Shown piece after piece: positions 2,364 through 50,760 of a DNA stretch of 64,000 nt. Under the pieces are notes generated by a model, which was not told the DNA's origin, made no database searches, and saw only the letters and a program-made list of their open reading frames with translations. Positions within the stretch are counted from its first letter, which is position 1. Every line of letters begins with the position of its first letter. The position numbers were made by a program, and so were the translations under genes. This DNA comes from Antedon mediterranea. Lineage: Eukaryota; Animalia; Echinodermata. The stretch is from contig NC_092675.1 in the NCBI RefSeq assembly GCF_964355755.1, positions 14,480,912-14,544,911 of the forward strand, read 5' to 3'.

Positions 2364-2411
<48 letters not shown>

Positions 2412-5917: not shown

Positions 5918-5949
<32 letters not shown>

Positions 5950-7208: not shown

Positions 7209-7249
<41 letters not shown>

Positions 7250-25400: not shown

Positions 25401-28400
25401 AGCACTTTGATGTTTTTGTGTTACCAAGTTTCATCGAAATGCACAAAATGGTCTAAAACGTCTCCAAATGCGATTTGAAGCTATTCTAAGCACTTTGGTG
25501 TTTTTATGTTAACAAGTTTTTTCGAAAATCACAAAATGGTCTAAAACGTCTCCAAATGCGATTTGAAGCTATTCTAAGCACTTTGGTATTTTTATGTTAA
25601 CAAGTTTTTTCGAAAATCACAAAATGGTCTAAAACGTCTCCAAATGCGATTTTAAGCTATTCTAAACACTTTGGTATTTTTATGTTAATAAGATTTTTCG
25701 AAAATCACAAATTGGTTTAAAACGTCTCCAAATGCGATTTGAAGCTATTCTGTACACTTTGATGTTTTTATGTTAAAAAGTTTTTTCGAAAATCACAAAA
25801 TGGTCTAAAACGTCTCCAAATGCGATTTGAAGCTATTCTAAGCACTTTGGTATTTTGTGTGAAAAAGTTTTGTCGAAATTCTCAAAATGGTCTAAAACGA
25901 TTTATAATGTGATTTTAAGCATTTTGATGTTTTTGTGTAACCAAGTTTCATCGAAATGAACAAAATGGTCTAAAACGTCTCCAAATGCGATTTGAAGCTA
26001 TTCTAAGCACTTTGGTGTTTTTATGTTAACAAGTTTTTTCGAAAATCACAAAATGGTCTAAAACCTCTCCAAATAGGATTTGAAGCTATTCTAAGCACTT
26101 TGGTGTTTTTATGTTAACAAGTTTTTTCGAAAATCACAAAATGGTCTAAAACGTCTCCAAATGCGATTTGAAGCTATTCTAAGCACTTTGGTGTTTTTAT
26201 GTTAACAAGTTTTTTCGAAAATCACAAAATGGTCTAAAACGTCTCCAAATGCGATTTTAAGCTATTCTAAACACTTTGGTATTTTTATGTTAACAAGTTT
26301 TTTCGAAAATCACAAAATGGTCTAAAACGTCTCCAAATGCGATTTGAAGCTATTCTAAGCACTTTGGTGTTTTTATGTTAACAAGTTTTTTCGAAAACCA
26401 TAAAATGGTCTAAAACTTCTCCAAATGCGATTTGAAGCTATTCTAAGCACTTTGGTGTTTTTATGTTAACAAGTTTTTTCGAAAATCACAAAATGGTCTA
26501 AAACGTCTCCAAATACGATTTGACGCTATTCTAAGCTCTTTGGTGTTTTTATGTTAACAAGTTTTTTCGAAAATCACAAAATGGTCTAAAACGTCTCCAA
26601 ATGCGATTTGAAGCTATTCTAAGCACTTTGGTGTTTTGTGTAAAAAAGTTTTGTCTAAATGCTCAAAATGGTCTAAAACGTTTTTAAATACGATATTAAG
26701 CTATTTTGTGCTCTTTGATGTTTTTGTGTGAAAAGTGTTATCGAAATGCTCAAAATGGTCTAAAACGGTTTATAATGTGATTTTAAGCACTTTGATGTTT
26801 TTGTGTAACCAAGTTTCATCGAAATGCACAAATTGGTCTAAAACGTCTCCAAATGCGATTTGAAGCTATTCTAAGCACTTTGGTGTTTTGTGTGAAAAAG
26901 TTTTGTCGAAATGCTCAAAATGGTCTAAAACTTTTTTAAATACGATATTAAGCTATTTTGTGCTCTTTGATGTTTTTGTGTGAAAAGTGTTATCGAAATG
27001 CTCAAAATGGTCTAAAACGGTTTATAATTTGATTTTAAGCACTTTGATGTTTTTGTGTAACCAAGTTTCATCGAAATGCACAAAATGGTCTAAAACGTCT
27101 CCAAATGCGATTTGAAGCTATTCTAAGCACTTTGGTGTTTTTATGTTAACAAGTTTTTTCGAAAATCACAAAATGGTCTAAAACGTCTCCAAATACGATT
27201 TGAAGCTATTCTAAGCACTTTGGTGTTTTTATGTTAACACGTTTTTTCCAAAATCACAAAATGGTCTAAAACGTCTCCAAATGCGATTTGAAGCTATTAT
27301 AAGCAGTTTGGTGTTTTTATGTTAACAAGTTTTTTCGAAAATCACAAAATGGTCTAAAACGTCTCCAAATGCGATTTGAAGCTATTCTAAGCACTTTGGT
27401 GTTTTGTGTGAAAAAGTTTTGTCTAATTGCTCAAAATGGTCTAAAACATTTTTAAATACGATATTAAGCTATTTTGAGCTCTTTGATGTTTTTGTGTGAA
27501 AATTGTTATCGAAATGCTCAAAATGGTCTAAAACGGTTTATAATGTGATTCTAAGCACTTTGGTATTTTTATGTTAACAATTTTTTTCGAAAATCACGAA
27601 ATGGTCTAAAACGTCTCCAAATGCGATTTGAAGCTATTCTAAGCACTTTGGTGTTTTTAGGTTAACAAGTTTTTTGGAAAATCACAAAATGGTCTAAAAC
27701 GTCTCCAAATGCGATTTGAAGCTATTCTAAACCCTTTGGTGTTTTTATGTTGATAAGTTTTTTCGAAAATCACAAAATGGTCTAAAACGTCTCCAAATGC
27801 TATTTGAAGCTATTCTAAGCACTTTGGTGTTTTTATGTTAACAAGTTTTTTCGAAAATCACAAAATGGTCTAAAACGTCTCCAAATGCGATTTGAAGATA
27901 TTCTAAGCACTTTGGTGTATTTATGTTAACAAGTTTTTTCGAAAACCATAAAATGGTCTAAAACGTCTCCAAATGCGATTTGAAGCTATTCTAAGCACTT
28001 TGGTGTATTTATGTTAACAAGTTTTTTCGAAAATCACAAAATGGTCTAAAACGTCTCCAAATACGATTTGACGCTATTCTAAGCACTTTGGTGTTTTTAT
28101 GTTAACAAGTTTTTTTGAAAATCACAAGATGGTCTAAAACGTCTCCAAATGCGAATTGAAGATATTCTAAACCCTTTGGTGTTTTTATGTTGATAAGTTT
28201 TTTCGAAAATCACAAATTGGTCTAAAACGTCTCCAAATGCGATTTGAAGCTATTCTAAACACTTTGGTGTTTTTATGTTGACAAGTTTTTTCGAAAATCA
28301 CAAATTGGTCTAAAATGTCTCCAAATGCGATTTGAAGCTATTATAAGCACATCACAAAATGGTCTAAAACGTCTCCAAATGCGATTTGAAGCTATTCTAA

Positions 28401-31400
28401 GCACTTTGGTGTTTTTATGTTAACAAGTTTTTTCGAAAACCACAAAATGGTCTAAAACGTCTCCAAATGCGATTTGAAGCTATTCTAAGCACTTTGGTGT
28501 TTTTATGTTAACAAGTTTTTTCGAAAATCACTAAATGGTCTAAAACGTCTCCAAATACGATTTGACGCTATTCTAAGCACTTTGGTGTTTTTATGTTAAC
28601 AAGTTTTTTCGAAAATCACAAAATGGTCTAAAACGTCTCCAAATACGATTTGACGCTATTCTAAGCACTTTGGTGTTTTTATGTTAACAAGTTTTTTTCG
28701 AAAATCACAAAATGGTCTAAAACGTCTCCAAATGCGATTTTAAGCTATTCTAAACACTTTGGTATTTTTATGTTAATAAGTTTTTTCGAAAATCACAAAT
28801 TGGTCTAAAACGTCTCCAAATGCGATTTGAAGCTATTCTGTACACTTTGATGTTTTTATGTTAACAAGTTTTTTCGAAAATCACAACATGGTCTAAAACG
28901 TCTCCAAATGCTATTTGAAGCTATTCTAAGCACTTTGGTATTTTGTGTGAAAAAGTTTTGTGGAAATGCTTAAAATGGTCTAAAACGATTTATAATGTGA
29001 TTTTAAGCACTTTGATGTTTTTGTGTAACCAAGTTTCATCGAAATGCACAAAATGGTCTAAAACGTCTCCAAATGCGATTTGTAGCTATTCTAAGCACTT
29101 TGATGTTTTTGTGTAACCAAGTTTCATCGAAATGCACAAAATGGTCTAAAACGTCTCCAAATGCTATTTGAAGCTATTCTAAGCACTTTGGTGTTTTTAT
29201 GTTAACAAGTTTTTTCGAAAATCACAAAATGGTCTAAAACGTTTCCAAATACGATTTGACGCTATTCTAAGCACTTTGATGTTTTTATGTTAACAAGTTT
29301 TTTCGAAAATCACAAAATGGTCTAAAAGGTCTCCAAATGCGAATTGAAGATATTCTAAACCCTTTGGTGTTTTTATGTTGATAAGTTTTTTCGAAAATCA
29401 CAAATAGGTCTAAAACGTCTCCAAATGCGATTTGAAGCTATTCTAAACACTTTGGTGTTTTTATGTTGACAAGTTTTTTCGAAAATCACAAATTGGTCTA
29501 AAATGTCTCCAAATGCGATTTGAAGCTATTATAAGCACATCACAAAATGGTCTAAAACGTCTCCAAATGCGATTTGAAGCTATTCTAAGCACTTTGGTGT
29601 TTTTATGTTAACAAGTTTTTTCGAAAACCACAAAATGGTCTAAAACGTCTCCAAATGCGATTTGAAGCTATTCTAAGCACTTTGGTGTTTTTATGTTAAC
29701 AAGTTTTTTCGAAAATCACAAAATGGTCTAAAACGTCTCCAAATACGATTTGACGCTATTCTAAGCACTTTGGTGTTTTTATGTTAACAAGTTTTTTCGA
29801 AAATCACAAAATGGTCTAAAAGGTCTCCAAATACGATTTGACGCTATTCTAAGCACTTTGGTGTTTTTATGTTAACAAGTTTTTTTCGAAAATCACAAAA
29901 TGGTCTAAAACGTCTCCAAATGCGATTTTAAGCTATTCTAAACACTTTGGTATTTTTATGTTAATAAGTTTTTTCGAAAATCACAAATTGGTCTAAAACG
30001 TCTCCAAATGCGATTTGAAGCTATTCTGTACACTTTGATGTTTTTATGTTAACAAGTTTTTTTCGAAAATCACAAAATGGTCTAAAACGTCTCCAAATGC
30101 GATTTGAAGCTATTCTAAGCACTTTGGTGTATTTATGTTAACAAGTTTTTTCGAAAACCATAAAATGGTCTAAAACGTCTCCAAATGCGATTTGAAGCTA
30201 TTCTAAGCACTTTGGTGTTTTGTGTGAAAAAGTTTTGTCGAAATGCTCAAAATGGTCTAAAACGATTTATAATGTGATTTTAAGCACTTTGATATTTTTG
30301 TGTAACCAAGTTTCATCGAAATGCACAAAATGGTCTAAAACGTCTCCAAATGCGATTTGAAGCTATTCTAAGCACTTTGGTGTTTTAATGTTAACAAGTT
30401 TTTTCGAAAATCACAAAATGGTCTAAAACGTCTCCAAATGCCATTTTAAGCTATTCTAAGCACTTTGGTGTTTTTATGTTAACAAGTTTTTTCGAAAATC
30501 ACAAAATGGTCTAAAACGTCTCCAAATGCGATTTTAAGCTATTCTAAACACTTTGGTATTTTTATGTTAATAAGTTTTTTCGAAAATCAAAAATTGGTCT
30601 AAAACGTCTCCAAATGCGATTTGAAGCTATTCTGTACACTTTGATGTTTTTATGTTAACAAGTTTTTTCGAAAATCACAAAATGGTCTAAAACGTCTCCA
30701 AATGCGATTTGAAGCTATTCTGTACACTTTGATGTTTTTATGTTAACAAGTTTTTTCGAAAATCACAAAATGGTCTAAAACGTCTCCAAATGCGATTTGA
30801 AGCTATTCTAAGCACTTTGGTATTTTGTGTGAAAAAGTTTTGTCGAAATGCTTAAAATGGTCTAAAACGATTTATAATGTGATTTTAAGCACTTTGATGT
30901 TTTTGTGTTACCAAGTTTCATCAAAATGCACAAAATGGTCTAAAACGTCTCCAAATGCCATTTGAAGCTATTCTAAACACTTTGGTGTTTTTATGTTAAC
31001 AAGTTTTTTCGAAAATCACAAAATGGTCTAAAACGTCTCATAATGCGATTTGAAGCTATTCTAAGCACTTTGGTGTATTTATGTTAACAAGTTTTTTCGA
31101 AAACCATAAAATGGTCTAAAACGTCTCTAAATGCGATTTGAAGCTATTCTAAGCACTTTGGTGTTTTTATGTTAACAAGTTTTTTCGAAAATCACAAAAT
31201 GGTCCAAAACGTTTCCAAATACGATTTGACGCTATTCTAAGCACTTTGGTGTTTTTATGTTAACAAGTTTTTTCGAAAATCACAAAATGGTCTAAAACGT
31301 CTCCAAATGCGAATTGAAGATATTATAAACCCTTTGGTGTTTTTATGTTGATAAGTTTTTTCGAAAATCACAAATAGGTCTAAAACGTCTCCAAATGCGA

Positions 31401-33017
31401 TTTGAAGCTATTCTAAACACTTTGGTGTTTTTATGTTGACAAGTTTTTACGAAAATCACAAATTGGTCTAAAATGTCTCCAAATGCGATTTGAAGCTATT
31501 ATAAGCACATCACAAAATGGTCTAAAACGTCTCCAAATGCGATTTGAAGCTATTCTAAGCACTTTGGTGTTTTTATGTTAACAAGTTTTTTTCAAAAAAC
31601 CACAAAATGGTCTAAAACGTCTCCAAATGCGATTTGAAGCTATTCTAAGCACTTTGGTGTTTTTATGTTAACAAGTTTTTTCGAAAATCACAAAATGGTC
31701 TAAAACGTCTCCAAATGCGATTTGAAGCAATTCTAAGCACTTTGGTGTTTTTATGTTAACAAGTTTTTTCGAAAATCACAAAATGGTCTAAAACGTCTCC
31801 AAATGCGATTTGAAGCTATTCTAAGCACTTTGGTGTTTTTATGTTAACAAGTTTTTTCGAAAACCACAAAATGGTCTAAAACGTCTCCAAATGCGATTTG
31901 AAGCTATTCTAAGCACTTTGGTGTTTTAATGTTAACAAGTTTTTTCGAAAATCACAAAATGGTCTAAAACGTCTCCAAATGCCATTTGAAGCTATTCTAA
32001 GCACTTTGGTGTTTTTATGTTAACAAGTTTTTTCGAAAATCACAAAATGGTCTAAAACGTCTCCAAATGCGATTTTAAGCTACTCTAAACACTTTGGTAT
32101 TTTTATGTTAATAAGTTTTTTCGAAAATCACAAAATGGTCTAAAACGTCTCCAAATGCGATTTGAAGCTATTCTAAGCACTTTGGTATTTTGTGTGAAAA
32201 AGTTTTGTCGAAATGCTCAAAATGGTCTAAAACGTTTTTAAATACGATATTAAGCTATTTTGTGCTCTTTGATGTTTTTGTGTGAAAAGTGTTATCGAAA
32301 TGCTCAAAATGGTCTAAAACGGTTTATAATGTGATTTTAAGCACTTTGATGTTTTTGTGTAATCAAGTTTCATCGAAATGCACAAATTGGTCTAAAACGT
32401 CTCCAAATGCGATTTGAAGCTATTCTAAGCACTTTGGTGTTTTGTGTGAAAAAGTTTTGTCTAAATGCTCAAAATGGTCTAAAACGTTTTTAAATACGAT
32501 ATTAAGCTATTTTGTGCTCTTTGATGTTTTTGTGTGAAAAGTGTTATCGAAATGCTCAAAATGGTCTAAAACGGTTTATAATGTGATTTTAAGCACTTTG
32601 ATGTTTTTGTGTAACCAAGTTTCATCGAAATGCACAAATTGGTCTAAAACGTCTCCAAATGCGATTTGAAGCTATTCTAAGCACTTTGGTGTTTTTATGT
32701 TAACAAGTTTTTTCGAAAATCACAAAATGGTCTAAAACGTCTCCACTTTGGTGTTTTGTGTGAAAAAGTTTTGTCGAAATGCTCAAAATGGTCTAAAACG
32801 TTTTTAAATACGATATTAAGCTATTTTGTGCTCTTTGATGTTTTTGTGTGAAAAAGTTTTGTCGAAATGCTCAAAATGGTCTAAAACGATTTATAATGTG
32901 ATTTTAAGCACTTTGATGTTTTTGTGTTACCAAGTTTCTTCGAAATGCACAAAATGGTCTAAAACGTCTCCAAATGCGATTTGAAGCTATTCTAAGCACT
33001 TTGGTGTTTTTATGTTA
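19413..33017. repeat. 88-bp AT-rich satellite array with ~87-bp and ~78-bp variant monomers
   Basis: Monomer cacaaaatggtctaaaacgtctccaaatgcgatttgaagctattctaagcactttggtgtttttatgttaacaagttttttcgaaaat (88 nt; e.g. tcacaaaatg at 20881 and 20969). Variants start gctcaaaatggtctaaaacgtttttaaatacg and gctcaaaatggtctaaaacggtttataatgtg. Confidence 0.98.
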
Positions 33018-33287
33018 CGACCACATCGGACAGTATGATCACATCAGTCCAAGAGATGGCTGCTAAAAAAAATTGAACTAGCCAACAATTCTAAAACTAG
33101 CAAACTATGGCTAACTTACCAAATGTTAGAAGTTGCACGAGAACTCATCAAAGCAGATCGAACTGGGTCATGGAAAATGCATCTTCATGCTATGAATGAT
33201 TGTTTGCCAATATTTGCTGCAGCTGGACATTCTAATTATCTGAAGTCTGGTTATCTCAACCTCCAGAAAATTCAAAGGTTAGAAACA
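33018..33287 (+). pseudogene. Academ A transposase, fragment 1
   Basis: ELANNSKTSKLWLTYQMLEVARELIKADRTGSWKMHL...LPIFAAAGHSNYLKSGYLNLQKIQRLET. Contains the RTGxWxxHL...AAGHxNY motif of this family. Interrupted by the Polinton. Confidence 0.8.
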
Positions 33288-34094
33288 AGTAGTATAGTAC
33301 CCCGTTCAGTCCAATGAATAATTCATAAATTAATTAATGAATATTAATATATTAATTATGAGAGTACTATTTATGAATAATAAATATTTTAAAGGGTATT
33401 ATTTATGAATAAATTAATAAATTAATTAATTATGAGGGGTAGTTTTATGAATAATTAATATTTTAAAAGGTATTATTATGAATAAATGAATAAATCAATT
33501 AATTATGAAGGGTAGTTTTTATGAATAATTAAATGGTATTATTTATAAATAAATGAATTAATTAATTAGGTATGAGGGGGTAGTTTTATGAATATTTAAT
33601 AATTAAAATGGTATTATTTATGAACAAATTAATAAATTAATTTGTTTAGTGATCCCAGTCCAATGAAAAAGTAATGAGATGTTTTAATATTCATGAATAT
33701 TAATATATTTTTTATTAATATGAGGGTGTTTTAATGAATAATTAGTAAATGCGTTGGTTTTTATTCTCTGAATTAATAAATTAAGTATTATATATGTAAA
33801 TTGTATTTAAATGTTAAAAATCAGTCTGATCAAATAGAATCAATCTGATCAGTTCTATTTGTAACTGGATAGGCTACCCTCAGTAAAGATGGTAATAAAT
33901 AAATAAAAATTAAAAATAATGTGCTTACCTTCATTGAGAAGTCTGAAATCTACAAGTTTAATCAGCTTTGATTACTGCTTTTTTTTATGTTTGTATAAGA
34001 ACAAAATCATAACATCAATCCGCTGTCTTTCCATGGAATTAGTTTACAGTATGTGAGGCGTGGACAGGTTATTTTTTCAAATCCAGTGATTTTA

Positions 34095-34395
34095 GCGGGT
34101 ATGTGACGTCATCCGGCAATGAACCAATAAGATTCCTTATAAACATAGCGCTAATGAATTAATCTACCAATCATAATTCGTTGTTTTTTGTAAGCTTAGC
34201 GATCTCAGTCCAATGAATAAGTAATGAGATGTTTTAATATTCGTGAATATTAATATATTTTTATTAATATGAGAGTGTTTTAATGAATACTTAGTAATTG
34301 CGTTGGTATTTATTCTATGAATTATTGAATTAAGTATTATATATGTAAATTGTTTTATTTTTAACAGGGTACCTGATTTACTATATATATACAGA
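34095..34395 (+). promoter_or_regulatory. Putative Pol II promoter in the TIR (CRE/ATF TGACGTCA, CCAAT boxes, TATA-like tract)
   Basis: gtgacgtcatccggcaatgaaccaataag at ~34103-34131, second ccaat at ~34167, ctatatatatac at 34381, ~100 nt upstream of ATG 34485. Mirrored in the right TIR. Confidence 0.4.
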
Positions 34396-34484
34396 TTGTT
34401 AATTTGAAAACAGTACAGTTTTCCTGCTTTAGATTTTTAACATTTAGTCATCTGTTCTTTATCCTGCTGTTATTATCTATCAGG

Positions 34485-35171
34485 ATGAATTCTACTCTAC
34501 CGGTAGTAAGAGATTTTTTTCTTCTTCAAAAGGACAGAGTGCTGTATCTAATCGAGTAAAGATACACAAAGTTTCACATCAACACGGCACAGCAGTACCT
34601 TCAAATCGTATGACGTGTTTAATGGCGATTCAACCCCCACCTCCAATGAACGTTGATTTCAATAATGTATCTAATACTGAAGAAGACGAACATTATAGAT
34701 CGAGAATAATTTCTGAAAAGGAGAGGATTGTATACGACGACATGTCATCGGTAGTTGACTACCACCTATTTCTGGCAAGAAAAGCCGATGTAGAAGATGA
34801 GGTAGAAGATGAGGTGTTTGCGGAAGAGTACCTGAACCCTGTGTTGGAGGTGGAGATTAAGAAAGAAACTACCGAACTTGAGTACAAAGAAATAATGAGA
34901 ACAATTGAGAAGGTTTTCATAGAAGAATTTATATTCATTCTGAAGGACATGGTTGAACGTTATAACTTTCACGGCTCAAGATATGAACAACTCCTAACAT
35001 TTTTTCGACCAATTCTGGCATTGAAACTTGTGGACAATAGCCCTACCCATTTTTGAATGGGCGCTAAACTACTTTCATTTACGTTGTATCAATGTTGATG
35101 CGTTCGATAAAGCCATAAAGTTGATTACAAATGATTCAGAACTTTTTAATAAGATTCTTTACCAATTGTAA
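34485..35171 (+). pseudogene. Unknown Polinton accessory gene within left TIR (reconstructed ~225 aa), frameshifted
   Basis: ORF 34610-35056 continues after a 1-nt frameshift as EWALNYFHLRCINVDAFDKAIKLITNDSELFNKILYQL* (in frame in the right copy). Upstream ATG at 34485. AATAAA at ~35303. Confidence 0.7.
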
Positions 35172-35474
35172 TTTGTACAAATTAAAAATAATATCTTAAC
35201 ACTTTTTTAATTAATGTTACATAATTTTATAATTCTTATTTCTTTTCGGTAAATTTATTATTATTATGGTTGTAAATTATATTGAAATAGAATGTGTGTT
35301 AAAATAAAGGTTGTGTTTTTTCTTTTAAAAGCAACAACAACGAAAATGAAATTTGATATTTGCGTGTTATTTAAGTATTTGATTTATTTTTTTAATTTTC
35401 ATTTGGGTGAATGAGGGTAATGAATATGATTGAGTATTTAAGAAAAGTATATTAAGATCCTAAGCATCCTGATA

Positions 35475-38400
35475 TAGGCTATGGGGCATGGCCTTCTATC
35501 GTTTCATTTCGTGATCTCCTATCGGGAGGGGGGGGGGGAGAGAATAAAATTGGTATTACAATTATAACACAAATATAAACTGGCCGGTCCCGCTTGTAAA
35601 TTTTACGCGTCAACGAAATATGTTTGTTTTTATATGTATTTTATTGCGATATAGAAGATTTTTGTAGGTCAGTACAGGTCGCACAATTGACCAATCAAAA
35701 AATTTGTCTTTTAACTCATGGAGCTGTGCAACAGTAACTGTCCAATCAGATTCGCTTACACAGCGGGATACGGCTACTAGACAATCGTAAACAAACATGT
35801 GTTGTTCTTCTGGAGCGCGGAGGAAGATGTCATCTTCTGATGATCAAAAACGTTGTTATTGACACAATACATCTAATTCTGGGACAATATTAACATTCAC
35901 AGAAACCAAATGGAAAACTTATTTAATGTGTACAAAAAATCTAAGCGGCAATCAAAAGGAGTTTTGTAGCCGCAAATCCTTTTGAAAATATTGAGAGCTT
36001 ACCAATACTTGTTACCAATTCCTGACGACGCTTGATGTCATAAAAAGATGCTATCAATATTTCACTGATTGTAGCAAACAAAGGCGAGCAGGAAAATATG
36101 ACATAGAGGATGTTAATTCATCCAACAATGAAGAAGGTAAATTCTATTTTTTTTAATGATAGGTCTAGACTAGGCCCCTAGCCTAGCTAGTAGGCCTAGG
36201 CCTAGTAATTATAAATTAGTTCATATCATATCTGCCTTGCTAAAAAAAGCCTAGCTAGGTAGGTTGGCGGTGGGTAGTCTACAAAGTTTATTTTTTTAAT
36301 ATGTAGAGTAGGCTAGGCCTAGTATATAATTTTTTTTTAATATCTGGGCCAACATAAAATGAACCCATAATTACAATATGAATTAGGCCTAGCTAGGGTG
36401 GCCCCAGTATTATTGTGTAGTGGACCTAGTTTGATGGTACCTCCATCTTGGGAAAAAACATTTGCATTTTATTCAATGTGGTAATGCATGCAAACCTTGG
36501 CAAGTAGCCTCAGGCAAGGACAGAATGGACCAACCTGATGCTTTATGTTGTTATTTGAGACATATTATTTGAATTCTTGTACTGCAATATTAAATAGTGT
36601 ATAGATGATACTGAACTGATTATATTATTATATTTATTACACAAACATTTAGAATCATAAATATTAATTAGTATTCTTTTTTTTTACAGAAGAATTTCAA
36701 GGATTAGAGTCAACAGAAGAGTCAACAGAAGAGTCAACAGCAGAACCTGTTACTAAACGAAGGAGAGTTCTGCGATCACATGTAACAATTACACAAACTG
36801 CATAAAAAATGCTGAACGAAGTCGAAGAGTAGCCATCGGCTCACAAACAATTAAAATACCAAAAGCCGAACAGCAAATTCCAGAACAGTTGAAAACATTT
36901 TTATCTGCTAATCAAGTTCTTCTTTCAGATATGAAGCATGTGTGAAGCAGATTACCTCAAGGGAATACATGTATTCATAACATCATCATTATTATGCCAT
37001 TCTATTTCAGAATCAAATGGAAAAGTTTTAATCAAGAAGAGGCAGACATCAGAATGTTTCTGTATGCGAAGTATGCTGTAGACCATGGTGGTAAAGATAT
37101 TGTTACAATCAGCCCTGACACTGATGATGTTTTTATTATTGGATTGGCATTTTGCAAAAGTCTGCATGGCTCTCACCTATATTTCAATACTGGAAAAGAT
37201 GCTAATCTCCGAACAATTGATCTGCAGGCTATTCAGGAACATATTGGAAATGATGTTTCAAATGCATTAATTAGACTACATTGCTTCACAGGATGCGATT
37301 CAGTCAGCGCTTTTTTGGGAACGGTAAAGTGAAGGCAATGAAACTCGTAATGGAAAACTCTAATTTATGCATTCTTTGCATTGGGCAATTCTACCAGCGA
37401 ACTTTCAGATGAATTACTTTGTGATCTAGAAACATTTGTATGTAGGCTGTATGGTCACAAGAACCAATCTGTCAATGAAGTAAGGTATGCAATGTTCTCA
37501 ATGAATGTAAGAGCTGAAAATATGATGCCACCCAATAAAGATACTGTATATAAACATATTCAGCGTGCCAATTCTCAAGCTTCAATTCACAAAGCTAGTT
37601 TTATTCAACAACAAAATGCTCCATCTCCTGTTGGAAATGGGTGGAAGATGGCCGATAATAAACTCGTAATTGACTGGATGGAGAAGCAACCTGCTCTACA
37701 CAGCATTCTCGAATTGTCATCCTGGTCATGTAAAAAGTCAAAATGCAATGAAGGGGTTGCAAATGAAAAATGCTGTGTATCCTTAGGATTCTCTTGTACA
37801 GAATTATGCTCATGCAAAAACTGTAAAAATCTTCTTCATACATCAGATGTTTTTGAAATTGATGGTGATGATAGCGATGATGAGGAAGAGGGAGATGAAT
37901 TTGAGCAGGAAGAACTTTTTAGTGTAGTTTAAGTGTAATTTATGGTTTACAAATGTTCATTTTACTTGGTCTACATGATTTTAATGTAATTACCCTAAAT
38001 TCACATATTATAGGCCTATTTAGGTTAAACTATTTTGTAACTTAACTATTTTGTAACGTAACGGATGAACCATGAGAAAGTATAAATAAAGAACCCATGA
38101 GATGATAAGCAATATTAAGACACATGAGTATTATAAGAAACTTTGCTGTAATAATTTCATTTATTTGTTACTAATTGCTTATAATTCTATGTTGTACATC
38201 TACAATGAAAACAATAATGCAACATTTGATTTATTACTAATTGATTATAATTCTATGTTATGCATCCAATGAAAACAAAAAGTTGCAATTATATAGGAGA
38301 GATAATATTAATAAATATTTTGTGACAGCATAGTCATGAATTATAAAGATTGAAAATGCATCTTCTTTTCAGTGTGCTTAAATAAATATTAATTAAGGTT

Positions 38401-38609
38401 TACTAACAGATACATTTCTTACAAGGAAATTCGATTTTTTTACACCTAAAATTACTCTTATTGCGTAACTTTTGGAAGCGGGATCGGCTGAATTTGTGTT
38501 AACCTAATTATTAACTATAAACTGTGTGAATATCTTCCTCCCCCACCCCCGTTAGGAGATCACGAAATTCGTTTTCTAGGCCTCTTTTTGGCTCATGCCC
38601 CATAGCCTA
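35475..38609 (+). mobile_element. Academ DNA transposon B (3,135 bp, internally deleted), inserted in the Polinton integrase
   Basis: TIR TAGGCTATGGGGCATG...CATGCCCCATAGCCTA, continuing imperfectly ~80 bp (atttcgtgatctccta). 3-bp TSD ATA (35472-74, 38610-12). XPG-like and Cys-rich coding remnants. Confidence 0.88.
36800..37932 (+). pseudogene. Academ B XPG/FEN1-like nuclease plus C-terminal Cys-rich finger, frameshifted
   Basis: QEEADIRMFLY...SPDTDDVFII...LHCFTGCDSVSAF (PIN/H3TH-type motifs), then SCKKSKC...CCVSLGFSCTELCSCKNCKN and an acidic tail. Confidence 0.85.
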
Positions 38610-38787
38610 ATAATTTTGGTGGTGTGGACCGACTTTATCAAAATGTAAAAGACGATTTAAATATTACCAAGAGACAAGTTCAAGACTGACTGAACAAGCA
38701 ATACATTACACACATCCATTCAACGTAAATTCAAACAAAACTGGGTACTTGTAAGTGCTATTGATAAACAACGGGGAATGGATTTGG

Positions 38788-38972
38788 AAAAATAACGTGT
38801 ATAAAATTTGATTCAGACAAACTGTTTGCAAAATCAAAGGTTTGACTCTAGATTTCCAAAAATCAAAGGAAGTCAATTTTGAAATAGTTGGTATAGCATG
38901 GTACGAGGAATCGGACTGGAAAAAATAACAACAACTAATCCTAACAAAATAACCCGTAAACCAAAATCTCAC
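38788..38972 (+). pseudogene. C-terminal remnant of Polinton protein-primed DNA polymerase B
   Basis: KNNVYKI*..QTVCKIKGLTLDFQKSKEVNFE then, frameshifted, SMVRGIGLEKITTTNPNKITRKPKSH. Fits the KNYxY...CKxKG(I/F)TL...VNF...NPxKI.R pattern near the end of Polinton pPolB. Confidence 0.78.
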
Positions 38973-40059
38973 TTAATATTTATTTTTTATTATAAATTTG
39001 TAAAAGTAGTTAACCTATTTTAATTCATGGTAAATTTATTTTTCGAATTAATTTAATTTGTTTTATTTTCTGTTGAATTTTTATTATTATTATGTTTGTA
39101 AAGTGTATTGCAATAGATTTGTTTATTAAAATAAATTAATTATGTTTTGACTTAATTTATGTCAGTGTAAATTTGTAAAAGTAGTTTTCCTATTTTAATT
39201 CATGATAAGTTTATTTCTTGACTTTACTTAATTTTTTCTTTTCTGTTAAAGTAGAATGTGTATTAAAATACATTTTGTTTTTAACATCAACAACAAAAAA
39301 TGAAATTTTATCTTTGTGTGTTGTTTAATTCGTGTATGATGTTTTTCTAATTTATTTATACAAAAAAAAAAAAAAAAAACAAGTTTTTTTGTTAAATGTA
39401 ATTGCAAACATACATAATAAATGATTGCGATTAAAAATTATATTTTGTAAAGTGTATTACAATAGAATGTGTATTGAAATACATTTTGTTTTTAACATCA
39501 ACAACAAAAATGAAATTTGATCTTTGCGTGTTGTTTAACTCGTGTATGAAGTTTTTGAATTTGTTAAATGTAATTGCAAACATACATATTAAATGATTGT
39601 GACTAAAATTATTCTGGTTACTTTGTATTTTTTTATTTTAAACAGTAGTATTTTTAACAGTAGTTATATTTTATATATAAAAAGTAATATTACAAAAATA
39701 AACATACAAAATTCATAAAGCATAGACTTATTAAATTTAAATACAATTTCTTTATTTCAAAATGAATTTCATTTTATACGTGTTTTCAATTTTAAATCTT
39801 TTAAGAAAGACACAATACGTACTGATATAAGAACGTACACAAAAGAAAACAAATTTGAGACGCACGGTTTGTAACGACACTTTCAATAAGAAGGCATATT
39901 ATAAATGTATTTTTACCAAATTTATAAAGTAAATGCTTATTATTGAGAAATATACATTTTAGATAAATGATAACACATCTAAAATTAATTCGAGAGATCA
40001 ATACAATATGGTGTTCATAATAATTTGTTTTGATGACTAGAGGAAACATCTGAAGACAT

Positions 40060-40623
40060 TCAAAGAAAACCAAGCGTTAACACCATACCAGTCACTAAGA
40101 ATGCTACTACTACTCTGAAAAAAACATCTCCCTTCCTACACAGAAACAAATTATGAACGAAAATAAAAAATAAAAAAATAAAAATAATTATTAAACAAAA
40201 CACGCGCATTATGAATAAAATGAATAATTTAAGAATATTTGTTAAACTACCCACGAACAAACTAACCGATTCATCGTCATTACGAAGTTCAAATAACGAA
40301 AACCTTTCCTTGAAAAATCCACAGGAGACACGTTTTACATTTTCTAACAGCAATTCAGTGTCACATTGTGTCGCAACACATGTACATACAACGAGTCCTG
40401 TCACAAGTCTGCCGACATCTATTTTTCTATCGCTCATCATTTGTTCTAATACATAATACAGCGCTTCCAAAGAAATATCTTTACACAATTCTAACACATT
40501 AAAATTGTTTTCCAACTCTTTACAATCACGAATAGTACTCTGGAGGATGGGTGAATCCAAAACAACTAACCCCGTCAATTTATATTCAATGTATGCTAAA
40601 ACTACTTCCTCTAAATCAACCAT
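40060..40623 (-). CDS. Intronless Bcl-2-family-like protein (187 aa from ATG 40623) with hydrophobic C-terminus; Polinton cargo
   Basis: BH4-like DLEEVVLAYIEYKL (human BCL2 DNREIVMKYIHYKL), BH3-position ILQSTIRDCKELENNF, BH1-like VLEQMMSDRKIDVGRLV (BAX DMFSDGNFNWGRVV), weak BH2, then hydrophobic stretches. Order and spacing fit the fold. Confidence 0.72.
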   Translation of the reverse strand: MVDLEEVVLAYIEYKLTGLVVLDSPILQSTIRDCKELENNFNVLELCKDISLEALYYVLEQMMSDRKIDVGRLVTGLVVCTCVATQCDTELLLENVKRVSCGFFKERFSLFELRNDDESVSLFVGSLTNILKLFILFIMRVFCLIIIFIFLFFIFVHNLFLCRKGDVFFRVVVAFLVTGMVLTLGFL

Positions 40624-41304
40624 AACGCTCGACAAAACAAATGATAATGGATGTAATTACCAAGAAAGTTACAACTTAAAACCTTTATTTTTGTTTTTAA
40701 AAAGAAAAAAAGTAACATAGAAACTAATTTTGTCAGGAAATGTGTTTTTATTATTTATGTGATTTATTTGTGTTTATAAAGTTACAACATTAACATTTAA
40801 TTTGGTAAAAAAATGTGAATATACGGAGCCGATTGTAATTTTTAATCCTTAGTATAGTGAGAGATTTTATAAACAAAAAAAGAGCGGACGGAAATTAAAG
40901 ATTGCAGATTAGACATATAGAAATGGATTGAAATTGGAAATCTACATGATCAAAGAAAAGAAACCCATTGTTCCGACAGAAGCTAATGACATTTACAAAG
41001 GATGACAAACTTTGAATAGAGTAAATACCGTATAACATAATTAAATTTTGTCAAGATAGTTGTCAAAAATAAATAAAATATATTATACTGAATTTACTTT
41101 GTACATTTATTTAATTTAGGCCGTAATTAGGTTTGTTGTTCATTTATGATTGTGACAAAAAAAAATACATACTAATAAAACAGCTATAGGCCTATAAAAA
41201 AAGTAAAAAAAAAAATAATGATTCAGTGTTATAATTTTATTTACCTGTCATTATGTTAATAAAACATATTCTAAATTTAATTTATGTCATGTTAGATATA
41301 TTTT

Positions 41305-41540
41305 CAAAGACATTTGTTACATACAAATAATTTTGTAAAGAAATGTGTTACATAAGATAAATTTGTTAAGAAGTTTGTTTCATAAAAATATTTGTGAAGA
41401 TAAATTTGTTACATAAAAATTATTTTTGTAAAGAAATTTGTTACGTAAATTTATTTTTTACAAGAAGTTTGTAACAGAAAATTATTTTGCAAAGAATTAG
41501 TTGCATCAATTGATTTTATCAAACGTATGTAACATAAAAA
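41305..41540. repeat. Degenerate short AT-rich tandem repeat (atttgttacataa / ttttgtaaagaa) next to the right TIR
   Basis: About 8-10 imperfect copies of aatttgttacataa-like and ttttgtaaagaa-like units. Confidence 0.6.
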
Positions 41541-41543
41541 AAA

Positions 41544-43660
41544 ATCAAATTTCATTTTCGTTGTTGTTGCTTTTAAAAGAAAAAACACAACCTTTATTTT
41601 AACACACATTCTATTTCAATATAATTTACAACCATAATAATAATAAATTTACCGAAAAGAAATAAGAATTATAAAATTATGTAACATTAATTTAAAAAGT
41701 GTTAAGATATTATTTTAAATTTGTACAAATTACAATTGGTAAAGAATCTTATTAAAAAGTTCTGAATCATTTGTAATCAACTTTATGGCTTTATCGAACG
41801 CATCAACATTGATACAACGTAAATGAAAGTAGTTTAGCGCCCATTCAAAATGGGTAGCGCTATTGTCCACAAGTTTCAATGCCAGAATTGGTCGAAAAAA
41901 TGTTAGGAGTTGTTCATATCTTGAGCCGTGAAAGTTATAACGTTCAACCATGTCCTTCAGAATGAATATAAATTCTTCTATGAAAACCTTCTCAATTGTT
42001 CTCATTATTTCTTTGTACTCAAGTTCGGTAGTTTCTTTCTTAATCTCCGCCTCCAGCACAGGGTTCAGGTACTCTTCCGCAAACACCTCATCTTCTACAT
42101 CGGCTTTTCTTGCCAAAAATAGGTGGTAGTCGAGTCAACTACCGATGACGTGTCGTCGTATACAATCCTCTCCTTTTCAGAAATTATTCTCGATCTATAA
42201 TGTTCGTCTTCTTCAGTATTAGATATATTATTGAAATCAACGTTCATTGGAGGTGGGGGTTGAATCACCATTAAACACGTCATACGATTTGAAGGTACTG
42301 CTGTGCCGTGTTGATGTGAAACTTTGTGTATCTTTACTCGATTAGATACAGCACTCTGTCCTTTTGAAGAAGAAAAAACTCTCTTACTACCGGATTGATT
42401 TTAAGTAGAATTCATCCTGATAGATAATAACAGCAGGATAAAGAACAGATGACTAAATGTTAAAAATCTAAAGCAGGAAAACTGTACTGTTTTCAAATTA
42501 ACAATCTGTATATATATAGTAAATCAGGTACCCTGTTAAAAATAAAACAATTTACATAATATATAATACTTAATTCAATAATTCATAGAATAAATACCAA
42601 CGCAATTACTAAGTATTCATTAAAACACTCTCATATTAATAAAAATATATTAATATTCACGAATATTAAAACATCTCATAACTTATTCATTGGACTGAGA
42701 TCGCTAAGCTTACAAAAACAATGAATTATGATTGGTAGATTAATTCATTAGGGCTATGTTTATAAGGAATCTTATTGGTTATTTGCCGGATGACGTCACA
42801 TACCCGCTAAAATCACAGGATTAGAAAAAATAACCTGTCCACGCCTCACATACTGTAAACTAATTCCATGGAAAGACAGCGGATTGATATTATGATTTTG
42901 TTCTTATACAAACATAAAAAAAGCAGTAATCAAAGCTGATTAAACTTGTAGATTTTATTCATTAAACTATACATCAGACTTCTCAATGAAGGTAAGCACA
43001 TTCTTTTTAATATGTATTTATATTATATATATATATTTATTTATTACCATCTTTACTGAGGGTAGCCTATCCAGTTCCAAATAGAACTGATCAGATTGAT
43101 TCTATTTAATCAGACTGATTTTTAATATTTAAATACAATTTAGATATATAATACTTAATTTATTAATTCAGAGAATAAAAACCAACGCATTTACTAATTA
43201 TTCATTAAAACACCCTCATATTAATAAAAAATATATTAATATTCATGAATATTAAAACATCTCATTACTTTTTCATTGGACTGAGATCGCTAAACAAATT
43301 AATTTATTCATTTCTTCATAAATAATACCATTTTAATTATTAAATATTCATAAAACTACCCCCCTCATACCTAATTAATTAATTCATTTATTTATAAAAA
43401 ATACTCTTTAAAATATTAATTATTCATAAAAACTACCCTTCATAATTAATTAATTTATTCATTTATTCATAATAATCCCTTTAAAATATTAATTATTCAT
43501 AAAAACTACCCCTCATAATTAATTAATTTATTAATTTATTCATAAATAATACCCTTTAAAATATTTATTATTCATAAATAGTACTCTCATAATTAATATA
43601 TTAATATTAATTAATTAATTTATAAATTATTCATTGGACTGAACGGGGTACTATACTACT
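41544..43660 (-). repeat. Right terminal inverted repeat of the Polinton (~2.12 kb)
   Basis: Reverse complement of 33288-35357. Confidence 0.93.
41730..42415 (-). pseudogene. Second copy of the unknown TIR gene (early stop and mid-gene frameshift)
   Basis: ORFs 42095-42283 and 41730-42116 are nearly identical to 34610-35171. Upstream in-frame MNST*NQSGSKRVFSSSKGQSAVSNRVKIHKVSHQHGTAVPSNR from ATG 42415. Confidence 0.7.
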
Positions 43661-43666
43661 GAAACA

Positions 43667-43854
43667 GAACATCCATCCGTTTTCTATAAGTTCAATAATG
43701 GATTTCATGTTGTTCGACGCACCAATAAATACTGGGCCGAACAGACTTTGATGCGATCTCTGAAAAGTTCAGGTGGTCTAACTAGAGGAAGTGGTATGAC
43801 AGAGCATCAAAGAGCTGTGTGGACAATGTATGCACCTATATCTGCTGCCTACAA
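43667..43854 (+). pseudogene. Academ A transposase, fragment 2
   Basis: In frame with fragment 1 once the Polinton is removed: LET-EHPSVFYKFNNGFHVVRRTNKYWAEQTLMRSLKSSGGLTRGSGMTEHQRAVWTMYAPISAAYN. Confidence 0.85.
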
Positions 43855-45513
43855 CATAGTTGCCATTTCTGGAATTATTATGCTTTTTTGGCATTATTTG
43901 GAGGCCCACGGCATCTGGCATAATGCCGCGGCATTATTTAGCCGTTTTTAGCATAATCTGGCATAATTTTGTGTTTTTTGAACAACCAAAAAAAATAATA
44001 TACTGTACCACAGAACAAAAATAAAATATTTTGTTAATACATATCACCTTACACAATATCATATCGTACAAAACAGATCTGTTCGGGTTTTCCGTACAAT
44101 AATTCTTCCATCCTTTCGTTTCGGACTTAATCGACTCTTCGGATACTGGAAGGCTGCTCGAAAACTACCGTGTGTGCGATATAGGCAGCACAACAAATCC
44201 GAAGAGGCTACCTATTGGCCAATTATGTTGTTCTATTTCAGAGACCATGCAGGTTATTGGATCCCCAGATATAGAGACAATTGAACGAAAACACATTATG
44301 AAAGGGGTTTTGTTTTTACAGTTCTTAATTATAAGCGGCCACACCCCTACCTCAACCCTTAAAATGGCAATTTCCGGTAACTAGAAGCTCTAATTTTAAA
44401 AAGAATTTCTTCTAGAGAATTTGTTTTCCATATTTCAAATTATGTTCCATTTGCATCGTCGTAGCTACCCTATATTTCCAAATGTTCTTCACCTCTCAGT
44501 GACCATGATGGGGCGAGGTCCAAGGGACTCTTATACATTTTTATTTAAAATTAAGTGCAATTTCCGGCCATCTAGCAGCTCTATTTTTCAAATTTGTTTT
44601 ACCTCAGCCCCAACCATGGTGGGGCTGAGGTCCTGGAAACACTTAATATACTGTATATTTTTATTTCCTATTTTAAATTATAATTGGCACTTTCAAAACT
44701 ATCATGGGCTAAGATCCTGGAGGTACTAATAAATGTATTTTATATTTGAAATTAAGTGGCATTTCCGGCCATTGAGAAGCTCTATTTTTTTCAAATTTTC
44801 TTACCTCAGCCCCAACCATGAGGTCCTGGAGACACAATTAATATATATTTTGATTTCCTATTTTAAATTATAATTGCCATTTTCAAACTATGGTGGGCTA
44901 AGATCATGGAGACACTAATAAATATATTTTTATTTCATATTTTAAATTAAGTGCCATTTCCGGCCATCGAGTAGCTGTATTTTTCCAAATTTTCTTATCA
45001 ACCATGGTGGGGCTGAGGTCCTGGAGACACTCAAAATAATTTTTTTTATTTCCTATTTTAAATTATAATTTCCATTTTCTAATTATGGTGGCTATAAGAT
45101 CCTTTCATTTTTTAAATTAAGTGCAAAGATCCCGGCCATCGAGCAGCTCTCCTATTTCAGCTAAAAAATTATAAATTTCCATGGCTGTAACAGGTTTTTG
45201 TTTTTTTTTTTAGGGTGGGGAGAGGGGTGGGGGTTGATGTTGGTGTCATTTGCAATTACCATTTTCGCACCCCAGATATTTAGAATTATTAGTTATTACT
45301 CACAAAACTAAAAATATAAATTTTGTACGACATGGGGATACAATTTTAGGCCCTATTTTGTGTCAGTTGGGGTTTTACAAACGTTTATTAGACATACACC
45401 CGTTGGTGGCGCTGTTTAGGGCCACATTTTGGGGCTCTGGCATTATTTTTCCCAATCTGGCATTATTTGAGACAGGATACGGCATAATTTAAATTTTATC
45501 GCTGGCAACGCTG
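43855..45513. mobile_element. Non-autonomous hAT-like DNA transposon (1,659 bp) with internal ~200-bp tandem repeats
   Basis: 8-bp TSD GCCTACAA (43847-54, 45514-21). Short imperfect TIR CATAGTTGCCA...TGGCAACGCTG. Subterminal ggcat(t/a)attt repeats at both ends. No transposase. Confidence 0.85.
44360..45160. repeat. ~200-bp imperfect tandem repeat (about 4 copies) inside the hAT element
   Basis: aagtg...tttccggccat recurs at ~44553, 44754, 44949 and 45119. Hairpin cctcagcccca-accatgg-tggggctgagg is complete in the first unit and partial in others. Confidence 0.75.
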
Positions 45514-45521
45514 GCCTACAA

Positions 45522-46940
45522 TTACGCCATGCAAGACTTCAGTAACAGAGTGTACAGTACACTGTTTCAGAGGTTTCTAGTAGTATCTCAATCTTGAGAT
45601 CTCTGCTTAGAGGAGGTAATGAAGTATGAACTTTCACCTTATCCTCCATTTTTGTTTGAAGGAAAGCACATTTTGAGGAAGGCCGAGAAAGCGCAGCTTT
45701 TAAGTGCTATACGAGAACATTTTATTTCATTAGATTCTGCTGTGATTCAGTCTATTCCAAAGATAGATCACTATGTTCTTGACGGAGGTTCACTTTTACA
45801 TCGATTGAAATGGAAGGAAGTACGTACAGCTCAATTGCGAACACCTATGCATCTTTGACGTATTGTCTATATGGCAGGGCCACTGTTGTCTTCGATAGGT
45901 ACAATAAAGGCCCTAACACAAAGGACAGCACTCATCTGCGTCGTAAAACTCAGATTGTAAATAAGGTCAACATATCAGATGGAACCACATTTGTTGGTAA
46001 GAAGGATGATTTCTTATCGAATGATTTCAACAAGCAGGCTCAAATTTACCTTATTGCAAACTGCTTGCGTCAGCAAGGCTGTCAAGTCATTCATGCTGAA
46101 GGTGATGCAGATGTAGATATAGTGAGAGCAGCCATTACCATGTCATCTTACACGTCAACAACCCTTATTGGAGAAGACACAGATTTGTTGGTCTTGCTAT
46201 TACATCACGCAGTAAAAGATTGCAACGATCTTTACTTTCGTTCTGACAAAGACAAACAGAAATCTTTTGTCTACAACATCAAAGTTCTAAAAAAGAGATT
46301 TGGTGATGATGTATGCTATGATCTGCTGTTTTTCCATGCATTCTCAGGCTGTGACACTACTTCAAGAATCTTTGGGGTTGGCAAGAGATCTTTATTCCAA
46401 AAAGTACACAAAGGCGATTCTATATTACATGCTTGTGCAAACATTTTTTGTACACCAAAGATAGATCCAGTGACTATAGAAGAAACTGGGTGTAAAGCAA
46501 TGATGTCCTTGTTTAATGGGACCCAGTCGCTCGAATCTTTACGGTACAGTTATCTCTGTAAGAAGGTGGCCTCATCAAAGACTTTTGTAAAGCCCGAAAG
46601 ACAACCTCCTACAAGCTCTGCTACAAATCAACATTCTCGGAGGACCTACTTGCAAGTTATGCAGTGGATCGTCAAGGGCCACGTCATGGATCCAACTGAA
46701 TGGGGTTGGAGTGCAAAAGAGGACAGACTTGTTCCAATCATGATGGACATTAATCCGGCACCACCAGACTCACTGCTCAAGATTATTCGATGCAACTGCT
46801 CTACAGGATGCAGCACATTGAAGTGTACCTGCAGAAAAAATGCACTCGAATGCACCACCGCTTGTGGACCTTGTCAAAGTGATAACTGTGAAAACATGAA
46901 CCAAGAGCCAGTTTCAGACGATGATGAAATCGAAGATTAA
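45522..46940 (+). pseudogene. Academ A, fragment 3: end of transposase region, XPG-like nuclease and Cys8 finger
   Basis: YAMQDFSNRVYST, then probable internal deletion, LFQRFLVVSQS*DLCLEEVMKYELSPYPP...VLDGGSLLH, frameshift, AEGDADVDIV...GEDTDLLVLL...HAFSGCDTTSRIFGVGK...CNCSTGCSTLKCTCRKNALECTTACGPCQSDNCEN. Confidence 0.88.
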
Positions 46941-47124: not shown

Positions 47125-47570
47125 GGATGTATGAAAATGTCATGCATTAAGTGTCAAAGGTCAAAACCTCGTGTTTTCGGTTATTTCTCAACAAAATGTT
47201 CAAAAACAGTAAATATAAATATGTATGTTCTGAACATTTTGACACTAATATCAAGACTTTTTGATTTGTAGTTATACGTAGATACGAAAATGTCATGCTA
47301 TGTGTCAAAGGTCAAAAATAAGAATTTCTGGTTATTTTCCAACAAAATGTTCAAAAAGGGTAAATATAAATATGTATATTCTGAACATGTTGACACCAAT
47401 ATCAAATCTCTATGACTAGTAGTTACGTAGGTATATAAATGTCGTGCCATATATGTCAAAGGTCAATAAATGTAATTTACTCTCATTTTTCAACAAAATA
47501 TTAAAAAGAGTAAATATAAACACATATATTCTGAACAATTTGACACCAAATACAGCTCTCTACGACAAGC
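47125..47570. repeat. ~150-bp tandem repeat (3 copies) in the Academ A 3' region
   Basis: tgtcaaaggtcaa at ~47152, 47303 and 47454, each followed by caacaaaat.tt.aaaaa..gtaaatataaa...ttctgaaca..ttgacac. Confidence 0.8.
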
Positions 47571-48981: not shown

Positions 48982-50760
48982 GCACTCATCGGACCGAAAA
49001 CGTACACGCTACTAAAGAATTTGTGTTCACCGGAGAAACCAGCGACACTGTCTTACGCAGATTTAATTACAAAGCTCACGACACATCTACAAAAGAGAAC
49101 AGCATAGCGGGGAAAGCATTGCGGGTGTCACGAAACCTAAGACCACGAAAGCTAAGACCCCCTAAGACCTAAGATCACGAAAGCTAAGACCCAGGACCTA
49201 AGATTACAAATATTTATCTTTCGCACCTGCCTTGTATTTTAACTCCCAACATTTATTCTGAATACCACACCTTAGAATTGGCACTTTCATGAAAAAGAAT
49301 CACATAAAAAGTAACAAATACATTTTTAAATTGATGATTTTACAGACGTTTTTCTCGCACACAAAATGACTAGCCTACAGTACAGTAGGCCTACCCCATG
49401 TTCAATGTTTTTGTTTCTATGGAACGTCAAAAGAGCAAAAATTATATAGAGGGCTGAAAACTCTGTGGAGTCCATCTACAGTGTGGATGGAACAATGTAA
49501 AATTAAAATTGTAATGATAATAGTATAATCATGCAAGTACGAAGAAATAAATACTGGCAAATAAATTTTAATTTAAAAATCATGATAAGTTTTTTTGTTT
49601 CGTTTTTTTCTGTTTTTATACTTGTACTATTATTGTTGCTCTTTTGGCGCTCCATAGAAACAAAAACATTGGGCATGGGGAGCTCGAGGAGTTACATTTC
49701 AGTATACAAAGAAACACATCTGTAAAATCATCAATTTAAAGGATTTATTTATTTGTTATTATGTGTTTCTCCTTCTGAAAGTACTTATAAGTCCTAATTT
49801 TAAAGTGTGGTGTTAAGGATAAAGTTAGTCAACAAATTTGGAGTCAAAATACAAGAAAGGCAGGTGCGTAAGAAAAACATCCTCTGAACCAACACAATGG
49901 AGTAAATGTATACCAACAAACAACCCGTCAAGTTTGTTTGTTGTAAAGACAAAAAAAAAAATTACTCAACGGGCGAAAATAATGTGAGTTTATCTATGTT
50001 TTGCGGTAGTATTAAATCATATTTATGGTAATAAATGAAACCTAATGTGTTTAAAATTATGTATGGATAAACAAGTATTGTTTTTAAGCTGTAGTATATC
50101 TTAGTATTTGTAATCTTAGGTGTTGGGTCTTAGCTTTCGTGATCTTAGGTCTTAGGGGGTCTTAGCTTTCGTGGTCTTAGGTTTCGTGACACCCAAAGCA
50201 TTGCTTCATACATTGCTGAACTACGAAGGTTAGCCATTCATTGCAATTTTGGAAACACTTTGACCTCGACACTGCGAGACATTTTCGTCTGCGGGTTGAA
50301 TTGCGTCAAGAGAACATTCAGAAACGTTTAATGGCGGTTCATGACCTTAAATTAGATGATGCAATTAAAACCACTGTAGCTATGGAAACAGCAAGTCGTG
50401 ATGCTACAGAATTTCAGAAAACAAGGACACCAAATACTTCAGGTGAGAGCAATGTAAATAAATTTACTACAAAAAATTACCAATCTAAAAGACACCAAGG
50501 TCATAAACAAAGTAAAGCATCTACACACTGCATGTTACAGATGTGGTAATACAGGCCATAAAGCAGATCGCTGCAGGCACATACATACTGTTTGCAATTA
50601 CTGTTCCAAGGAAGGACATCTAGAAAAAGTATGCATGAAGAAAAAAAAGACAATAATCTGTCAAAGCCTAACACTGGTAACCTTAAAAAAAATGTACAGT
50701 ATGTACAGGGAGAGGAAGTCAACTATGAACCTATGCTATATGCAAATCATATGTCAAAAG
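48982..50760 (+). pseudogene. Gypsy gag remnant, interrupted by a MITE
   Basis: ALIGPKTYTLLKNLCSPEKPATLSYADLITKLTTHLQK...ESIASYIAELRRLAIHCNFGNTLTSTLRDIFVCG. Two CCHC-type knuckles CYRCGNTGHKADRC and CNYCSKEGHLEKVC at ~50534-50634. Confidence 0.82.
49123..50194. mobile_element. MULE/foldback-like MITE (1,072 bp)
   Basis: TIR GGGTGTCACGAAACCTAAGACCACGAAAGCTAAGACCCC with ctaagac subrepeats. 10-bp TSD AAAGCATTGC (49113-22, 50195-204). Further imperfect inverted match inside (~49215-49440 vs ~49635-49870). Confidence 0.85.

Follow-up and report, generated by a model that had tools for sequence, protein, structure and literature searches.

The 64,000-nucleotide stretch of Antedon mediterranea contig NC_092675.1 analysed here (the window) contains a Polinton-derived element of 10,373 bp at positions 33288-43660, which begins with AGTAGT and ends with ACTACT. 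It is flanked by a 6-bp target-site duplication (TSD), GAAACA, whose left copy (33282..33287, plus strand) is perfectly matched by the right copy (43661..43666, plus strand); the chance of such a match is ~3e-4 at the local base composition. The ends of the element are long terminal inverted repeats (TIRs), of 2,074 bp on the left (33288..35361, plus strand, starting with AGTAGT) and 2,121 bp on the right (41540..43660, minus strand, ending with ACTACT). They align with 2,024 matches, 34 mismatches (1.65%) and 17 indel events, and total 4,195 bp. When a nested transposon is subtracted, 7,235 bp of the element remain, and the part between the TIRs accounts for 3,040 bp of this. The insertion interrupts the transposase open reading frame (ORF) of an Academ-like host transposon, of which the piece left of the insertion (33039..33287, plus strand) resumes in frame at 43667-43951; another piece of it lies at 45783-46940. 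The element therefore has the Polinton hallmarks of (AGT)2//(ACT)2 termini, a 6-bp TSD and TIRs. A preliminary description of the locus had already claimed the AGTAGT...ACTACT termini, the perfect GAAACA duplication, a length of ~7.2 kb without the nested Academ with ~4.2 kb of it in TIRs, and clean in-frame restoration of the host ORF upon excision, and our measurements bear out all of these.

Between the TIRs, the remains of two Polinton hallmark genes were found, both on the plus strand. The first ~15 codons of an integrase are located at 35426..35470, where they match residues 1-15 of P0002, a 167-aa rve-domain protein (E 0.027), and an integrase profile (independent E-value, iE, 0.0095). 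The remainder of this stub is located at 38613..38786 and runs to about residue 77 of P0002, with one stop and one frame break near 38,700. Translation of 38615-38790 with X at the breaks gave a match to P0002 with E 5.5e-14 and 67% identity, and residues 15-77 of P0002 align to 38606-38786. An intact rve integrase is not present, since only residues 1-77 match, split and broken, and the stub ends at approximately the start of the rve catalytic core. The second remnant, at 38815..38886, is a C-terminal stub of protein-primed DNA polymerase B (pPolB), detected with a profile of eight pPolB C-termini (family DNA_pol_B_2; iE 4.8e-6) at a score reached by none of 200 shuffles of the element interior. 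The source of this profile was a set of 63 Polinton-like loci collected from metagenome contigs using P0002. Intact pPolB is likewise absent, the match being limited to 24 C-terminal codons where related polymerases reach up to 970 aa, and the stub used alone as a query found no homolog among four candidates. The deletion junction, at which the integrase 5' stub is fused to the pPolB 3' stub, thus lies at 38786..38815 (no strand assigned), within the interval 38760-38820 to which it had previously been assigned. In one related Polinton locus, L007:4917-10574, the two genes share a strand and pPolB precedes the integrase, whereas the stubs in the window imply the opposite order.

The search for other core genes made use of 40 profiles, built per seed from the ORFs of four related Polinton-like loci. 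Six of the 40 matched the element below E 0.01, all of them integrase or pPolB C-terminus, and the remaining profiles bear no Pfam capsid, ATPase or protease label, so that the absence of these three genes is read mainly from ORF size. No stop-free frame longer than 202 aa occurs within the element, so that none of the genes for capsid, ATPase, protease, integrase and polymerase is present intact. The term 'core-less' used in the preliminary description is nevertheless too strong, because the integrase and pPolB stubs remain. Searches of viral_contigs with the stubs or with P0002 yielded no locus, and the terminal 25-mer of the element had no match in viral_contigs or metagenome_contigs. Of two degenerate motifs used as queries, one returned nothing and the other returned two phage contigs without relation to the element (L001 and L002); these were excluded from all later counts.

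Parts of the element interior are contained in 12 sequencing runs of six studies. Four of these were examined, namely X1 and X5 (two samples of organism A, with X5 possibly derived from RNA), X6 (organism B) and X10 (organism C), while X2-X4, X7-X9, X11 and X12 were left out; contig depths are given as a proxy and do not represent copy number. Depth was unbroken over 38,750-38,820 in all four runs and thus under three organism labels. Contigs bridging the junction with at least 31 letters on each side were present in X5 (136 nt, depth 6.2), X6 (71 nt, depth 301) and X10, in which a contig of 824 nt spanned all 331 bases at a depth of 25.8. Depth at 38,799 in X1 was ~7,700 over all contigs, and the listed interior contig had a depth of 7,277 as compared with 359 for the contig of the left flank, a difference of ~20-fold. 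In X5, X6 and X10 the left flank was covered sparsely or not at all, a gap that we do not count as evidence. Contigs identical to the window across the frame break near 38,700 had depths of 3,155 (X1) and 20.7 (X5), from which it follows that the broken version itself has been amplified, and length variants of the terminal repeats are present in X1.

The preliminary description had named a junction unique to this locus as the sign of mere decay after insertion, and the junction proved to be shared by four out of four runs, at ~20 times the flank depth in X1. This supports its proposal of a defective Polinton derivative forming a non-autonomous family. The loss of the middle of a full-length Polinton at this locus alone, after its insertion, would agree with the decayed state of this copy (stops, frame breaks and a nested insertion) and with the erosion of 96% of vertebrate Maverick loci given in the available text of PMC8097293, but is largely refuted by the same junction under three organism labels together with the depth difference in X1, and we consider it hardly credible. 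Over 331 bases, the X10 contig with this junction shows 11 letter differences from the window, and indels in addition, as compared with 1.65% between the two TIRs of the present copy. Measured against this TIR divergence, the difference suggests that the deletion is older than the present insertion, unless the TIRs have been homogenised.

All four runs also contained a contig that matches only the pPolB stub; the match sets in at 38,819, and the 119 to 255 or more letters ahead of it are unlike the window. As far as can be judged from sequence, these contigs fit a longer Polinton relative in each genome. The depths of these parent-like contigs were 608 (X1), 4.6 (X5), 534 (X6) and 3.7 (X10), and those of the fused form ~7,700, 50, 19,800 and 25.8, respectively, so that the ratios of fused to parent-like depth were ~13 (X1), 11 (X5), 37 (X6) and 7 (X10). 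Adding further divergent contigs to the parent-like class changed these ratios to ~5 in X1 and 23 in X6.

The only intact ORF of the element encodes 187 aa at 40060..40623 on the minus strand, with residues 1-120 predicted to be Bcl-2-like and a hydrophobic C-terminus. PF00452 was its best Pfam family (E 0.012; 16.6 bits as compared with a curated cut-off of 31.4). Language-model (Atlas) features scored 0.92, with ten out of ten best matches in one family or clan and recognition below threshold. Searched with a low-confidence model of residues 1-120 (predicted local distance difference test, pLDDT, 42), 21 of the 22 top chains out of 48,161 were Bcl-2-family proteins, both cellular and viral. 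The best of these matches had a Z of 7.1, a root-mean-square deviation of 4.0 and 110 aligned residues, and a Z below 8 is not decisive by itself. Sequence homologs were found neither among 451 candidates nor in the PDB sequences nor in 1.84 billion representatives. With a single-sequence model of the entire protein (pLDDT 56), Foldseek returned no match at E 0.001 from either BFVD or PDB, with many weak Bcl-2 entries, and VIA applied to this model matched the C-terminal helices alone. From the concordance of three weak tests, we conclude that the ORF very probably has a Bcl-2-like fold. The part encoding the hydrophobic C-terminus coincides with low-complexity, AT-rich DNA, and some of it may belong to an intron.

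Bcl2 and IAP homologs are adintovirus accessory genes according to the part of PMC8502044 available, which refers to its Supplementary Figs S1-S2 for the location of Bcl2. Because Bcl2 homologs have already been reported there, inheritance from the parental element is the more likely origin, and by this analogy the ORF is probably an inherited viral accessory gene rather than a new capture from the host. The 'host-interaction cargo' proposed in the preliminary description amounts to one Bcl-2-like ORF, and its capture from a host is less likely than parental retention (again on the available part of PMC8502044).

We conclude, with a probability of roughly 0.72, that the element is one copy of a multi-copy, internally deleted Polinton family that shares a single integrase-pPolB deletion and is likely to parasitize intact Polintons in trans. 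Several observations weigh against this conclusion. Among the contigs listed for X1, there is no junction bridge with 31 letters per side, so that continuity of the junction in that run is deduced from depth. The run contigs end at the TIR and revealed neither a further insertion site nor another TSD. Sample S1 is possibly the source of the window itself, in which case it is not independent, and the organism labels are coded and give no measure of relatedness. The parent-like contigs are only ~85% identical to the pPolB stub and were not linked to the TIRs described here, and an integrase continuing past 38,786 was not seen among the contigs listed. At the three sites of the Bcl-2-like ORF where every copy examined differs from the window, the difference is at the second codon position; this fits neutral decay of the present copy and is uninformative on family-wide selection. 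Finally, depth in X6 was 500-1,650 in the outer TIR (33314-34449) as compared with 20,000-60,000 in the inner TIR, a drop of roughly 30- to 100-fold, and loose contig ends occur at 34,609 in X1 and X6, where the contigs leave the window sequence outward. Many junction-bearing copies may therefore have other outer ends or none, and possibly constitute subfamilies.

Depth in X6 reaches the tens of thousands, which is extreme, and the interior greatly exceeds the outer TIR; this profile is also what array-like amplification would give. It could hence reflect one old deleted Polinton that was multiplied passively, by tandem or segmental duplication of host DNA in satellite-rich chromatin and without any transposition; the position of the locus next to 33 kb of satellite arrays and the lack of a second flank in the contigs would agree with this. 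Against such passive duplication, the present copy has its own perfect TSD within the ORF of another transposon and TIRs that are 1.65% apart, the flank contig of X1 is ~20 times shallower than the junction, and several sequence variants of the junction region coexist. We therefore regard it as unlikely.

If the element is indeed a member of a family parasitic on intact Polintons, we infer a helper, protein priming at the AGT ends and a gain in template copies, in the following way. The (AGT)2 ends and the TIRs would act as the origin of protein-primed replication and as the integrase substrate, as has been proposed for Mavericks in the available text of PMC8097293. The helper, whether a resident genomic copy or a polintovirus arriving by infection, would supply the polymerase and the integrase, and would thus replicate and integrate the short template, which could out-replicate its parent as defective genomes do. 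The Bcl-2-like ORF would have been inherited from that parent and spared by the deletion because of its position beyond the block that was lost; selection on it may continue or may have ceased. It is also conceivable that the family was moved in trans by integrase alone, with neither packaging nor protein-primed replication, through excision and reinsertion in the style of a giant miniature inverted-repeat transposable element (MITE) or foldback element. The action of an integrase calls for no more than TIRs and a 6-bp TSD, and at 7.2 kb the element falls well short of intact vertebrate Mavericks (12.7-24.6 kb), for which the available text of PMC8097293 suggests a size constraint. The data do not separate the two routes. 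The protein-priming motif (AGT)2 is preserved at either end of the element, and the surplus relative to the parent-like contigs fits a replicative gain; we consider movement by integrase alone very unlikely.

The TIRs of the element contain additional repeats and coding-like sequence. Four repeats of ~74 bp (33351-33642), an internal duplication of ~160 bp and a 12-bp motif occurring three times are present in the left TIR. This motif, the 12-mer CAGTCCAATGAA, has three copies in each TIR (spanning 33307-34217 and 42686-43641) and is absent from the rest of the window (six matches, zero expected); one copy lies 19 bp from either end of the element. This 12-mer may be a protein-binding site of a putative replication origin. 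The left TIR furthermore contains an acidic-then-helical ORF at 34448..35056 (plus strand) of 202 aa from stop to stop, whose counterpart in the right TIR (41730-42400, minus strand) is interrupted at another position. Family searches with this TIR ORF matched nothing credible. In X6, the TIRs reach their greatest depth in the stretch that holds this ORF.

Adjoining the right TIR is a 31-bp tandem repeat of ~7 copies (41296..41517, plus strand). An AT-rich spacer at 39010..39562 (plus strand) holds three degenerate copies (73-74%) of the inner TIR end (35196-35398), which are possibly a promoter-like module in repeated form. These copies precede a degraded coding-like stretch at 39780..40090 (plus strand), as the original inner TIR end precedes the integrase start. 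That stretch, for which no family was accepted, has a collinear and non-significant match to the pPolB C-terminal profile (E 0.66) and was not accepted as a further piece of pPolB. A second degraded coding-like stretch, at 40781..41020 (plus strand), yielded no family. TAATGARAT sites were considered as a signal and rejected, with five found as compared with 5.35 expected, and an Rfam scan of 33000-44000 gave no family.

The transposon nested within the element (35475..38609, plus strand) measures 3,135 bp, has TAGG...CCTA ends and a 3-bp duplication, ATA, and arrived separately and at a later time, dividing the integrase stub in two. The ORFs for the C-terminal part of its transposase (36946-37932) are broken and are homologous to the ORFs of the host transposon (E 2e-6 and 2e-7). 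We tentatively take both transposons to be Academ-like on the basis of motifs and TSD length, and a Pfam search of their transposase ORFs gave no family. A TSD of 3 or 4 bp is given for AcademX in the available text of PMC10045372, and the ATA duplication of the nested transposon is of this length. Joints that skip the nested transposon were found in X1, X6 and X10, and in X5 it bears other flanks. Since it is missing from other copies and occurs elsewhere in X5, it is not established as cargo of the family.

The window as a whole has the character of repetitive animal DNA. Satellites fill its positions 1-33,000, in the form of an array of 19/21-bp units (1-19407) and an adjoining array of 88-bp units with higher-order periods (19413-33020), the latter of which cuts off the Academ-like host transposon. 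Further tandem arrays are located at 44533-45091 (195 bp), 47133-47549 (151 bp), 61792-62179 (190 bp) and 62782-63998 (21 bp). A broken Gypsy-like retroelement at 50458-53501 has reverse transcriptase, zinc-binding and rve integrase domains, with the reverse transcriptase and integrase at 50.9-52.8 kb.

Although Polinton-derived, the element does not count among the autonomous Polintons, since it lacks intact genes for pPolB, the integrase and the virion. Deletion derivatives of this general kind were reportedly described from zebrafish by Kapitonov and Jurka in 2006, as non-autonomous Polintons in which the TIRs of the parent and the 6-bp TSDs persist and for which movement in trans has been suggested. 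In comparison with these elements, the present family has an integrase-pPolB fusion found under three organism labels, an ORF in the TIR and a Bcl-2-like ORF. The concept of a non-autonomous Polinton is itself not new, and the architecture of this family is a new variant of it. Within the literature searched, including the available text of PMC6431247, PMC5499653, PMC4028283, PMC11131425 and PMC11414722 (with subscription papers, Repbase and supplements outside the scope), an integrase-pPolB-fused derivative with a Bcl-2-like gene was not found, and a phrase such as 'non-autonomous Polinton' was met only regarding Tlr1. An apparent absence of nonautonomous Polintons in anole is described in the part of PMC3014272 available.

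With the autonomous Polintons or Mavericks (polintoviruses, adintoviruses), as portrayed in the available text of PMC8097293 and PMC5718144, the element shares (AGT)2//(ACT)2 termini, a 6-bp TSD, TIRs and rve integrase and pPolB ancestry. The former source gives (AGT)2//(ACT)2 or (AG)3//(CT)3 as alternative terminal motifs of Mavericks, and sizes of 12.7-24.6 kb with TIRs of 46-1,447 bp for intact vertebrate ones. In contrast, the element described here is 7.2 kb in size, with 2.1-kb TIRs, fused stubs of hallmark genes and no intact virion gene. The nematode cargo Mavericks of Widen et al. (10.1101/2022.07.12.499685) are similar in having a non-core gene within Polinton ends, and insect polintons (10.1101/2025.02.07.637071) in having transposable-element cargo or gene-bearing TIRs. 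In the available text of both, these carriers are described with core genes, whereas here the core genes are reduced to stubs. Defective-interfering genomes and MITE-type transposons are generally known to have kept the cis ends and lost the enzymes, and the element resembles them in this and in the depth of the derivative, which is greater than that of its presumed parent, while exceeding a MITE in size by far.

It is not settled whether Polintons spread in the manner of transposons, of viruses or of both, and defective Mavericks at high copy number are described as perplexing (PMC8097293, in the text available). The sharp, shared junction of the family described here is a natural marker, by which copies can be counted and dated. 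It can also reveal which cis sequences are sufficient for movement, and makes mobilisation in trans testable from genome data alone. More speculatively, the family could be a long-lived Polinton satellite lineage that either predates the split of its host species or was passed between hosts, that exceeds its helper at least ten-fold and that is selected for a viral Bcl-2 keeping germ cells alive during replication of the helper. We consider this doubtful; if true, it would represent an endogenous virus resembling a defective-interfering genome that pays its way with an anti-apoptotic gene. Should the Bcl-2-like ORF be conserved across copies, the family would be a helper-dependent element that spreads an apoptosis regulator through animal germ lines.

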